Virus record (IMG/VR): IMGVR_UViG_3300046490_000065
Coordinates: 30,629 to 94,628 of that record
Length of the DNA: 64,000 bases
Strand: one strand, 5' to 3'
Source of the DNA: a virus
Lineage: Duplodnaviria; Caudoviricetes
Shown: in pieces, positions 50,235 to 57,191 of the stretch
How positions within the stretch are numbered: position 1 is the first letter of the stretch
Layout of the letters: every line of letters starts with the position of its first letter
Made by a program: the position numbers and the translations under genes
Notes under the pieces: generated by a model
Told to the model about the DNA's origin: nothing
Databases searched by the model: none
The model's input: the letters and a program-made list of their open reading frames with translations, nothing else

Positions 50235-50848
50235 TCCACCCGTCCAACATTGGACGCCGTTTCCTCAAACAGGCTACTCGCGTCTTCCTCGGCCGGCGGC
50301 GCCAGCTTCTTCTCGATCAGGTCCGCCAGTTCCGTCCCGGTGTTGAACTTCGCACCCAGGATCTCGGCCAGCCGTTCGGCCGCCACCTCGGTCATGAGTA
50401 CGTGGTGCGGCCGGGGGTGAAGCTCGTACACCCACTCGTTCTCCTGCACCGCGTCCACCACTTCCTGCATGAGCGCATCGACCGTCCGCTCCTGCGTGCG
50501 GGCCAGTTCCTCGTACGCCGGGTAGTTGGCCGGATCGATCAGCACGGTCACCCGGTGCTTCCCGTCCACCATTCCCGCCACGTCGCTGATGTAGGGGATC
50601 AGTTCCTCGGCGTTGCTCAATTGGACGCCCGTGGAATCCAGGACCAACTTCACATCATCCGGCGGGAACAGGACGCCGCCGGTCGCGATCTGGGTCAGGA
50701 CGTCCTCGGTCATGTCGCGGATCTTCTGGGAGGGCGATGCGTCCACCCCTTCCGGCATCTCCATCATGTCCGTCAGGATTGGGACGTGCGCCTCTTTAAG
50801 TTCGATTTCAAGGTTGTACTTCACTGTGTCGGTTGGCTTCTTTGCCAT
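50231..50848 (-). CDS. Acidic hypothetical protein, possible RHH-like segment
   Basis: AGGAG RBS; promoter TTGACT(50899)-17-TACAGT. Confidence 0.65.
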   Translation of the reverse strand: MAKKPTDTVKYNLEIELKEAHVPILTDMMEMPEGVDASPSQKIRDMTEDVLTQIATGGVLFPPDDVKLVLDSTGVQLSNAEELIPYISDVAGMVDGKHRVTVLIDPANYPAYEELARTQERTVDALMQEVVDAVQENEWVYELHPRPHHVLMTEVAAERLAEILGAKFNTGTELADLIEKKLAPPAEEDASSLFEETASNVGRVE

Positions 50849-51408: not shown

Positions 51409-51912
51409 TCACGATAGGCGCTTCCAGGTGGTGCCGTCCGCCTGCATGGCGGTCCCGCCGATCGCGGCGATCATAAGCTCTACCCCTGGGGTGGGCTTCA
51501 GGACGGGAGCGGCGGGAGGCGGCGGCATCACGAAGGAGAACGGCTGGCCGATCTCCATGGCGAACGCTTGGTTGATTTGCTCGACGGATGCGAAGTCGTT
51601 GAAGTACTTCGCCATCAACCCGGCGTTGCGCGGGGTGATGCTTTCGTCGGGTAGCTGGATCATCTGATTCGGCTGGTTTTGCCCCAGCGGTCCACCTACT
51701 CCCGTGATCGCGTTGACCTCGACCACCTTGCAACTGCCCGGCGGCAGGCCGGCGCCCAGTTCGATGATCTGGCAAAGCAGTTGAGCCGTTGCCACGGTGG
51801 CGAAGTAGTAAGGGCTGTACAGGTACGGCCCGGAGTTGGAACTCCCTCCGGGCGGGGGATCGGTTACCCAAGGGTTGGGGCCGAACAACTGTTGTGCAGT
51901 GGGGCTCGTCAT
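51409..51912 (-). CDS. Hypothetical protein
   Basis: GGAAGGA RBS before MTSPTAQ. Confidence 0.6.
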   Translation of the reverse strand: MTSPTAQQLFGPNPWVTDPPPGGSSNSGPYLYSPYYFATVATAQLLCQIIELGAGLPPGSCKVVEVNAITGVGGPLGQNQPNQMIQLPDESITPRNAGLMAKYFNDFASVEQINQAFAMEIGQPFSFVMPPPPAAPVLKPTPGVELMIAAIGGTAMQADGTTWKRLS

Positions 51913-51972
51913 AAAGGTTTGGTTCCTTCCAATTCGGAGTATACCACCCTTTACTTGGGTGGGGATGGCAAA

Positions 51973-52050
51973 TGGAAGGCCGGATGGGAGTCGAACCCAC
52001 ATCGTCCAAATTACGGCTACTGGGGTAGAAACCCAGACCGATACCGGCCC
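51973..52050 (-). ncRNA. D-arm-less tRNA-like RNA (loop UUUCUAC; UCU in standard register)
   Basis: GGGCCGG/CCGGCCT acceptor, GTGGG-TTCGACT-CCCAT T arm, CTGGG/CCCAG stem, CCA end. Confidence 0.7.
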
Positions 52051-52051
52051 A

Positions 52052-52119
52052 TGGAGGGGATGGCGGGATTCGAACCCGCTACCTGTGGAAACCCAGGGCA
52101 CGGCCGCTATACCAGCCCC
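52052..52119 (-). ncRNA. Short tRNA-like RNA (68 nt), identity undetermined
   Basis: GGGGCTG/CATCCCC acceptor with one mismatch, perfect T arm, CCA; irregular D and anticodon arms. Confidence 0.5.
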
Positions 52120-52193
52120 GCTTCATTGATTACTACCTACACCTTCTATTTTCAAACATCGATCCGCGCCTTCATGGTACTGCGCGGCCAAAA

Positions 52194-52270
52194 TGGTCGG
52201 GGAGGGTGGATTCGAACCACCGCTCCTCTGCTCCCAAGGCAGATGGGTTAAACCGCTTCCCTACTCCCCG
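52194..52270 (-). tRNA. tRNA-Pro(TGG)
   Basis: CGGGGAG acceptor, loop CTTGGGA, CCA. Confidence 0.9.
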
Positions 52271-52486
52271 AAAACTTAAAGGCCCGGTCGATCCTTTTTG
52301 TGGGACCGCCGGGCCGCTTTCATCGTGTTTTGGCTGAAAGAATCAGTCGATGACCGGCGGCCCATCCTGGGTATCCACGTGCTTCGCACGGCCGATATTG
52401 GCCGGCTGCATCGTTTCGTTTCTCCCGAATTTGGGTTGCCTTGTCATCTGAGTTAGAGTCTACATCGGATCCGTTTTGGAAGTCAA
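52271..52486 (-). promoter_or_regulatory. Promoter, leader ORF (52343-52447) and antiterminator/terminator upstream of tRNA-Pro
   Basis: TTGACT-18-TAGACT; GGGCCGC (52357-63) can pair with GCGGCCC (52311-17), which overlaps the terminator stem GGCCCGG...CCGGGCC-TTTAAGTTTT. Confidence 0.65.
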
Positions 52487-52520
52487 GACTTATTTTCCGG
52501 TCCAATGTTGGACGCGTCGA

Positions 52521-52721
52521 TCACCTCGTTCGGATCAAAGGTGGCCCCGACCCGGCGTACCCGAGAAGAATCGAGAGTAGCCACAAGCAAACCGCCACGA
52601 TCACCACCACCCGAATGATCCTTGCGATGGCGGCATCCATCGGGATCTGCGCAACCACCCACAGCACGAGGCCCACGATGATCAGGACAATCACTATCTG
52701 CACCAAGAATGCTGGGAACAT
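52521..52721 (-). CDS. Small two-TM membrane protein
   Basis: LIIVGLVLWVVAQIPMD...IIRVVVIVAVCLWLL; GGAGGA RBS. Confidence 0.75.
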   Translation of the reverse strand: MFPAFLVQIVIVLIIVGLVLWVVAQIPMDAAIARIIRVVVIVAVCLWLLSILLGYAGSGPPLIRTR

Positions 52722-52882: not shown

Positions 52883-52955
52883 TGGAGCACCGCCTCGGAA
52901 TTGAACCGAGTTCTACCGGGTTGCAGCCGGTGCGCTCTCCGTTTGCTTGCGGTGC
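52883..52955 (-). tRNA. tRNA-Cys(GCA)
   Basis: Loop CTGCAAC, U73, CCA. Confidence 0.85.
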
Positions 52956-53377
52956 TGAACTAAATCCGTGATCAACTTTTCCAAACGCCCATCCATGATC
53001 GGTGCCAGCGGGTACTGCTTGTCCAGCCGCTCGTCGGTCACCCGCTGTTCAGGGAAGTGGTATGTCCTGATCCGGCCTTCTCCAAACGCTGCTTGGCGCC
53101 GGACATTCTCTTCCGGCTCGCCGACCTTCCCCATTCTCCTGGCGCATTCAAGTTTGTGCCAGTCCTTGAACTGCTTCGTCGCAACCATCCGGAGGAACGC
53201 TGTCCGCTTGTTCGTGGTTTGGCTCCGCTCGTCGGCGGAGTACCCGACCGCCCCGCTCGGCGGGTGCGTCATGCGGATCGCCGTGTGGCTTCGGTTGGCG
53301 TGTTGGCCGCCCTTGCCACCGGACGTCAGGTCCTCGATCTTGAAATCCTTCGCCGTCAATGAAAACAGAAGCGTCAT
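52913..53377 (-). CDS. Minimal class-I release factor homolog (GGQ peptidyl-tRNA hydrolase domain)
   Basis: SGGKGGQHAN...AIRMTHPPSG...ERSQ..NK..A...RIRTYHFPEQRVTD; AGGAGG RBS; 154 aa. Confidence 0.9.
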   Translation of the reverse strand: MTLLFSLTAKDFKIEDLTSGGKGGQHANRSHTAIRMTHPPSGAVGYSADERSQTTNKRTAFLRMVATKQFKDWHKLECARRMGKVGEPEENVRRQAAFGEGRIRTYHFPEQRVTDERLDKQYPLAPIMDGRLEKLITDLVQHRKQTESAPAATR

Positions 53378-53394
53378 GAACCCTCCTGAAACTT

Positions 53395-53863: not shown

Positions 53864-53944
53864 CTAGAGGGGATACAAACAGGAGCCGGCCGACCAGAGT
53901 CGGTGGCTCGATAGGAGGGACGAACTTGAGAACAGGTAACGCAT
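53864..53944 (-). CDS. Putative 26-aa leader peptide of the tRNA operon
   Basis: MRYLFSSSSLLSSHRLWSAGSCLYPL fills the gap between promoter and first tRNA. Confidence 0.55.
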   Translation of the reverse strand: MRYLFSSSSLLSSHRLWSAGSCLYPL

Positions 53945-53960
53945 ATCAGTTCCGATTTAG

Positions 53961-53989
53961 ATAGTAACTGGAGATGGCTTGGATGTCAA
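53961..53989 (-). promoter_or_regulatory. Strong sigma70 promoter of the tRNA operon
   Basis: TTGACA-17-TACTAT. Confidence 0.8.
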
Positions 53990-56720: not shown

Positions 56721-57191
56721 CTACTCTTCTACGAGTACCGCATCTGGCGTGGGTTCGAACGAGATCACATCGAAGCTGGCTGGGATCGCCTTGCGCTGCT
56801 TCTCCTCTTCTTCGAGGATTCGCTGGATATCCTCGAACGACCTTGGCCCATCCGAAGCCCGGTGCGCGTGGCTTTCGGCCGTGTTGTTGTTCTGCTGGTT
56901 GACGTTAACCACCAAGCCTCTGTCCTTCGCGCCGGTCAATCCGAAGATTTCTGCGATGAGCTTGTTAGCTTGCATGTCGTTTAGGTGTGTACTCCGACGA
57001 AGGCTATTGATCATATCAGGGATGAGGATTGGCGCCACGGCCGCGAGGATGGCCTTCTGGTACGTGCCTTTACCAAGACTCTTGGCAGTGACGCTGCGGG
57101 TTGCGATCTTGTCGGGTAGCTTGATGTCCTTGATAGGTTTGCGGCCGTCCAATGTTGGACTGGCCGGCTTCTTTTTGTGCGAGGTGGCCAT
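56721..57191 (-). CDS. Putative terminase small subunit
   Basis: Directly upstream of terL; VNVNQQNNN beta tail. Confidence 0.6.
   Translation of the reverse strand: MATSHKKKPASPTLDGRKPIKDIKLPDKIATRSVTAKSLGKGTYQKAILAAVAPILIPDMINSLRRSTHLNDMQANKLIAEIFGLTGAKDRGLVVNVNQQNNNTAESHAHRASDGPRSFEDIQRILEEEEKQRKAIPASFDVISFEPTPDAVLVEE

Follow-up and report, generated by a model that had tools for sequence, protein, structure and literature searches.

The sequence analysed here, called the window below, is a 64,000-nt stretch of a 94.6-kb IMG/VR virus record that represents an uncultured soil phage. All genes of the region discussed lie on the minus strand. The large terminase gene (56717-54243) is followed by a promoter and a small leader frame (leader 1, 53864-53989), which stand ahead of a first tRNA array consisting of tRNA-Ser, Tyr, Leu, Leu, and Trp (53855-53395). 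After tRNA-Trp come a gene with an RF-1 domain (GGQ; 52883-53380) and tRNA-Ser(CGA) (52879-52790). A second leader, leader 2, precedes tRNA-Pro(UGG) (52194-52270; detected by ARAGORN and, at 65 bits, by Rfam). Two tRNA-like genes (51973-52130) lie downstream of tRNA-Pro, before further protein genes; neither received an ARAGORN call or an Rfam match at gathering score. Only seven tRNAs are recognisable in the whole record, and no tRNA-Cys was called by ARAGORN in the window. Between tRNA-Ser(CGA) and leader 2, the window alone carries a 66-codon membrane-protein frame (52521-52721), which appears to be a small gene relocated to the tRNA region. A relative of this frame was seen in contig L002 (6445-6651), where it lies upstream of the terminase gene and has the pre-computed Pfam assignment PF28077.

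Leader 2 begins with a sigma-70-type promoter (52457-52486, minus strand). A promoter scan found it where the sequence-only reading had placed it, with TTGACT as the -35 element (52486-52481), TAGACT as the -10 element (52462-52457), an 18-nt spacer, and 9 of 12 consensus matches. An open frame of 34 codons with a TGA stop follows (52447-52343, minus strand); it is present in the ORF list with the very peptide that had been described for it. The earlier claim of a GC hairpin with a U-tract reaching tRNA-Pro was borne out as well. A hairpin of 13 pairs with one bulge, of the intrinsic-terminator type, occupies 52315-52281 (minus strand); a simple terminator scan missed it owing to the bulge, and it was found by folding. 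The 10-nt U-rich tract behind it (three U, AAG, four U; 52280-52271, minus strand) abuts the tRNA-Pro start at 52270, and there is therefore no room for another promoter of tRNA-Pro.

Folding of the window leader (all coordinates on the minus strand) revealed four segments giving the 1:2, 2:3, and 3:4 pairings of a trp leader. Segment 1 (52424-52448), which includes the start codon, is the 5' strand of a long helix with segment 2 and would act as an anti-antiterminator. A central hairpin (52377-52414) lies inside the frame. Segment 2 (52348-52377) is the 5' strand of the antiterminator, its core (52363-52348) being the last six sense codons. Segment 3 (52301-52325) overlaps the 5' arm of the terminator and has two alternative partners, segment 2 in the antiterminator and segment 4 in the terminator. 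Before the 3' arm of the terminator exists, the segment 2 core is predicted to pair with 52325-52311 and into the 5' arm at -28.5 kcal/mol. The sequence-only reading had proposed a competing pairing that excludes the terminator; the exclusion stands, since the 5' arm is taken in either register, but the lowest-energy register is shifted by a few bases from the one described. The 1:2 helix, which joins the 5' half of the frame to the antiterminator strand, was absent from that reading. The RNA from its 5' end to the stop codon folds at -41.2 kcal/mol in the window. This matters for the predicted direction of the switch: an early-stalled ribosome is still expected to open the leader, but the companion claim that the leader is also on when no ribosome is present is not safe, because segment 1 pairs so strongly with segment 2. 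In a transcript that lacks the 3' arm of the terminator, the 2:3 helix is the lowest-energy fold even with segment 1 free. A ribosome-free transcript, in which 1:2 would form first, may therefore settle in either state.

Related metagenome contigs were reached through close homologues of the terminase and of the RF-1-domain protein, and two of them, L083 and L089, carry a homologue of leader 2. In L083, whose terminase is 69% identical, the gene order is Ser-Tyr-Leu-Trp-Ser, a 233-nt spacer that contains the leader, and, as far as the contig reaches, Pro, Gly, Thr, Ile, Met, Ala, Phe, Gln, Gln, and Arg. In L089, the RF-1 gene and tRNA-Cys are followed by a spacer with the leader and by Pro, Gly, Gly, three Thr, Ile, and Met. 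Thus leader 2 heads long arrays for many of the remaining amino acids in both relatives. In L083 and L089, the gene after tRNA-Pro is a tRNA-Gly(UCC), to which the first tRNA-like gene of the window (52056-52130, minus strand) can be aligned with a 5-nt gap in the anticodon arm and mismatches in the acceptor stem; judged by this alignment, the window gene is a degenerate or remodelled tRNA-Gly. Since it is a damaged relative of the tRNA-Gly(UCC) of both contigs, the second array of the window (tRNA-Pro and two aberrant tRNA-like genes) looks reduced. Two further details of L089 were recorded: the end of its RF-1-domain (GGQ) gene (453-1040) overlaps tRNA-Cys (1027-1101) on the same strand, and between tRNA-Cys and the leader promoter, at 1107-1192, inspection by eye shows an apparent type II tRNA with a UGA (Ser) anticodon loop and a long variable arm, which ARAGORN did not call.

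The layout of the promoter and the start of the frame is shared. In L083, L089, and a further contig, L087, the -35 element is identical to that of the window, the -10 element is TAnnnT, and the spacers are 17-18 nt long. The frame is open in all three leaders, with 34 (window), 35 (L083), and 30 (L089) codons, and in each of them its ATG lies exactly 9 nt past the -10 element. No Shine-Dalgarno box precedes this ATG in the window, L083, or L089. Such a fixed spacing puts the predicted start of transcription 0-3 nt ahead of the ATG, as is typical of leaderless mRNAs, and the leader-2 mRNA is thus probably near-leaderless. An alternative start had been suggested at the second Met of the window frame, served by a GGGAGA box. 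The box is indeed there (52426-52421, 9 nt before the second ATG), but it is not kept in L083; we rejected this Met as the conserved start, which is the first ATG.

The terminator and its competitor are conserved by co-variation. Both homologous leaders have a GC hairpin whose U-tract touches the first base of tRNA-Pro, as in the window; the tract is interrupted in the window and L083 and near-perfect in L089. The terminators of the window and L083 keep the same helix despite three differences: one G-C pair is exchanged for A-U, a further change is single-sided but compatible, and the two arms have a matched deletion. The RNAalifold consensus of these two sequences is the antiterminator helix, with one pair changed on both sides, so that compensatory changes are found in both helices. 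The 1:2 helix is of equal strength in L083 (-41.6 kcal/mol from the 5' end to the stop) and less clear in L089, and L083 has a hairpin of different sequence at the place of the central hairpin. The comparative set comprises three leaders, of which those of the window and L083 share much sequence, and L089 is, as sequence comparisons go, the stronger structural test. There, segments 2, 3, and 4 are all replaced by an unrelated yet self-consistent set (GGCUGGC / GCCAGCC / GGCUGGC): the seven bases right after the stop codon are complementary to the 5' arm of the terminator and identical to its 3' arm.

In all three leaders, the best upstream partner of the terminator 5' arm adjoins the stop codon. 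Compared with dinucleotide shuffles, the real duplex was better than 97-99% (P = 0.015 for the window, 0.009 for L083, and 0.029 for L089). Terminator and antiterminator energies are -26.5 and -28.5 kcal/mol in the window, -22.7 and -30.2 kcal/mol in L083, and -15.1 and -16.3 kcal/mol in L089; they are balanced in all three, which is what a kinetic switch needs. The leaders as a whole fold better than their shuffles, with z values of -4.2, -3.9, and -2.2. The stop codon is placed such that a terminating ribosome would mask segment 2, although the strand lies on different sides of it: it ends 3 nt before TGA in the window and L083 and starts directly after TAA in L089. The parts of an attenuator therefore exist at this locus, they are mutually exclusive, and they are conserved with co-variation.

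Outside these contigs, the leader was not encountered. Two closer relatives, L087 and L088 (terminase 77% identical), keep the promoter after tRNA-Ser(CGA), and a different short leader follows, with neither the frame nor tRNA-Pro. This argues for a cassette mosaic, in which the cassettes behind a conserved promoter are exchanged. The corresponding stretches (L087 4660-5160; L088 1140-1640) contain the conserved promoter, a short hairpin with a U-run, and several tRNA-like sequences without ARAGORN calls. Blastn against known phage genomes returned nothing similar, only generic tRNA-Ser matches, and single-protein look-ups in IMG/VR yielded no useful homologue. None of 80 IMG/VR terminase relatives, whose identity did not exceed about 55%, had such tRNA arrays or a leader match, and the RF-1 relatives L090-L092 have no tRNA array. 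Exact DNA patterns from leader 2 or leader 1 found no match in IMG/VR or GTDB genomes. Two matches of a pattern scan of JGI metagenomes were discarded as chance, lying inside coding sequence with no tRNA nearby; an unrelated jumbo phage found with a tRNA-Pro-based pattern (L093) was also dropped, for it has no comparable leader.

We also asked what the frame encodes. A codon count confirms that the window leader has no Ser, Leu, Tyr, Trp, or Cys codon and that it contains four Pro codons together with AGG and AGA. In-frame codons for these five amino acids number 0 in the window, 1 in L083, and 0 in L089, compared with 4-8 in the other frames and with 3.3-4.2 expected from composition-matched shuffles (P = 0.015, 0.043, and 0.017, respectively). 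Since the frame of L089 shares only about 34-45% nucleotide identity with the other two, at least two of the three depletion tests are nearly independent. The first tRNA array serves these same five amino acids, and the leader-1 frame is rich in them; leader 2 is, as had been proposed, the complement of the first leader.

Other coding tests were negative. Shuffles of the U-poor leader sequence are also open in 40-58% of cases. When amino-acid identity in the proposed frame was set against that in the other frames, the window and L083 showed no advantage and the comparison with L089 only a modest one, and the leader peptide, as far as these comparisons go, is not conserved in sequence. The 34 codons include four for Pro but no run of them, and the amino acids of the downstream arrays were not significantly enriched after control for base composition (P 0.04-0.3). 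Conservation at the peptide level is not required of a leader peptide, and these results weaken the case without refuting it. The early codons of the window frame include AGG, CCC, GGG, and AGA; they are of the codon class of tRNA-Pro and possibly of those of the two degenerate tRNA-like genes. The Gly-Pro-Pro codons probably arise as a side effect of the pairing sequence, because the corresponding strand of L089 lies after the stop codon and has no Pro-Pro; we rejected them as a conserved arrest motif, as they are absent in L089. It is nonetheless plausible that ribosomes read the frame, as argued from the fixed spacing of the ATG, the frame-specific codon content, and the stop, which adjoins segment 2 in all three leaders even though segment 2 precedes it in two and follows it in the third.

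Taken together, the layout kept in two homologous leaders, the co-variation of the pairings, and the frame-specific lack of codons in all three leaders support the idea of a ribosome-coupled attenuator put forward in the sequence-only reading. We conclude that leader 2 is probably (at roughly 0.55) a ribosome-mediated transcription attenuator of the trp type, acting through a leader peptide and gating tRNA-Pro and whatever follows it. The start site, the reading of the frame by ribosomes, termination at the U-tract, and the way in which the switch responds are inferred. Transcription would begin 0-3 nt before the ATG, and a ribosome would load on the near-leaderless RNA. When decoding is quick, the ribosome would reach the TGA and cover segment 2; segment 3 would then pair with segment 4, polymerase would stop in the U-tract, just one base before the tRNA begins, and no tRNA would be made. 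A ribosome held in the early codons would instead mask segment 1 and leave segment 2 free to pair with segment 3 before segment 4 is made, so that polymerase could read on into the tRNA genes.

The frame might instead be incidental to a structured leader that switches through RNA alone, with the outcome set by folding kinetics, a protein, or a small RNA. We are doubtful of this explanation, although several results agree with it: there is no frame-specific conservation of the peptide, open frames are common in U-poor sequence, no Shine-Dalgarno box is present, and the structure is strong (z -4.2, -3.9, and -2.2), with a central hairpin kept with different sequence. An incidental frame, however, does not account for an ATG fixed 9 nt from the -10 element in three of three leaders, for a stop that is always beside the antiterminator strand while the sequence of the strand and its side of the stop vary, or for the depletion of five amino acids in the proposed frame only. 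Nor is there a conserved unpaired core, as in ligand-binding leaders, or an Rfam match at E up to 1. That last result also bears on a leader of the T-box type, which would sense uncharged tRNA directly. A position ahead of a translation-related gene and the presence of a terminator/antiterminator pair would suit such a leader, but neither a T-box nor another Rfam family was matched at gathering score or E up to 1, and the core of the leader is not conserved among the three homologues. We therefore rejected a T-box riboswitch for want of an Rfam T-box core match and regard a T-box-like leader as extremely improbable.

Two other explanations would take the terminator out of the control of tRNA-Pro. 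Together, the promoter, the short frame, and the terminator make up a small transcription unit that is complete in itself and could be a separate small gene or a small RNA with an ordinary terminator; tRNA-Pro would then arise from constitutive leak-through, and the match of segment 2 to the terminator arm would be non-regulatory. Terminated attenuator RNAs and leader peptides can act in trans in other bacteria (PMC6614838, PMC7298713), in line with such a unit. We consider it unlikely, given that tRNA-Pro has no other promoter and is touched by the U-tract, and that the complementarity to the terminator arm exceeds that of shuffles in all three leaders and recurs in L089 in new sequence, at an unchanged position with respect to the stop. 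Alternatively, the hairpin may be a processing or stability element rather than a terminator: RNase P cleavage at the 5' end of the tRNA would leave an upstream RNA protected by the hairpin. The hairpin and its tail do end exactly at the RNase P site, and two of the three sequences have an interrupted U-tract; yet a GC-rich stem is followed immediately by at least three U in all three, the tract of L089 is near-perfect, and the conserved competing helix would be left without a reason. We judge a processing element to be quite improbable.

A leader-peptide attenuator in front of tRNA genes has familiar relatives. In enterobacteria, leader-peptide attenuators of amino-acid operons include trpL, hisL, thrL, and the multivalent ilvL of ilvGMEDA. 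Leader 2 shares with them a short leader frame, the pairings 1:2, 2:3, and 3:4, and an intrinsic terminator directly ahead of the genes to be regulated, and its stop codon, like theirs, is so placed that a finishing ribosome would mask segment 2; ilvL and thrL likewise mix several amino acids in the frame rather than using a single run. Those leaders control genes for biosynthetic enzymes, whereas phage tRNA genes lie behind leader 2. The start of leader 2 is, moreover, probably leaderless, it has no run of a single codon, and its selectivity would consist in the exclusion of five amino acids. Closer in purpose are the leaders of aminoacyl-tRNA synthetase genes, among them pheST in E. coli, which is under a leader-peptide attenuator. 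In bacilli, a His leader is found upstream of hisS and hisZ paralogues (PMC2965389). Here too, leader-peptide attenuation acts on a component of decoding, and poor decoding raises the supply; the product is encoded by a protein gene for one amino acid, whereas leader 2 would control a tRNA, a molecule of the same kind as the one sensed. T-box riboswitches are likewise terminator/antiterminator leaders that respond to tRNA charging, but they bind the tRNA directly and have a conserved core, and no such core is detectable in leader 2.

Rfam covariance models run over 51900-52560 gave tRNA-type matches only, with no amino-acid operon leader family at gathering score or E up to 1. Leader 2 thus matches no curated RNA family, and its working principle is, with the same probability as the attenuator itself, that of trpL, hisL, and ilvL applied to tRNA genes. 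Full-text literature searches turned up no account of tRNA genes under leader-peptide attenuation, whether in phages or in cells, which is not proof of absence. To our knowledge, the control of phage tRNA genes has barely been studied.

Leader 1, ahead of the first array, also has its own promoter and a frame, in this case of 26-29 codons, among which those for Ser, Leu, Trp, Cys, and Tyr are plentiful. Conservation of this frame extends over four contigs (window, 53864-53989, minus strand; L083, 8286-8394; L086, 3359-3461; L087, 3433-3531), and its hairpin shows co-variation, with a U-rich tail behind it. In contrast to leader 2, the frame itself contains the hairpin and the stop codon comes only 8-15 nt ahead of tRNA-Ser, and the logic of leader 1 may differ. 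With the leader-2 frame using only amino acids other than those of the first array, the two arrays could answer to different shortages. We tentatively propose, as a possibility that we hold with less confidence than the attenuator, that the two leaders form complementary decoding sensors, each array being switched on only when ribosomes stall on its own codon class, so that the phage tRNAs would be made on demand. Stalling might follow the cleavage of host tRNAs by defence nucleases or the shut-off of the host tRNA supply; the phage tRNAs would then be an on-demand counter-measure, with the ribosome itself as the sensor.

The role of phage tRNAs has long been debated, codon compensation and escape from tRNA-targeting defences being the two main views (PMC10264068, PMC11555353). 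If the attenuator is real, the phage measures the speed of decoding and makes tRNAs on demand, which would favour phage tRNAs as a replacement for depleted host tRNAs. Starvation for Pro, Gly, or Arg, or cleavage of the corresponding tRNAs, should then open leader 2, and starvation for Ser or Leu should open leader 1 only. Such a leader would be a compact and testable sensor, and classical attenuation would be extended from enzyme genes to RNA genes.

Finally, a 14-bp palindrome, GTCCAACRTTGGAC, has 17 sites in the window compared with 0.6 expected by chance, including 50242-50255 and 57147-57160. One copy had been noted just upstream of the leader-2 promoter, and it is indeed found at 52500-52513, 14 nt upstream of the -35 box. 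The palindrome is also present in L087 and L088 and is absent from L083 and L089; it is thus not conserved with the leader. From its position, the copy at 52500-52513 may be an operator.
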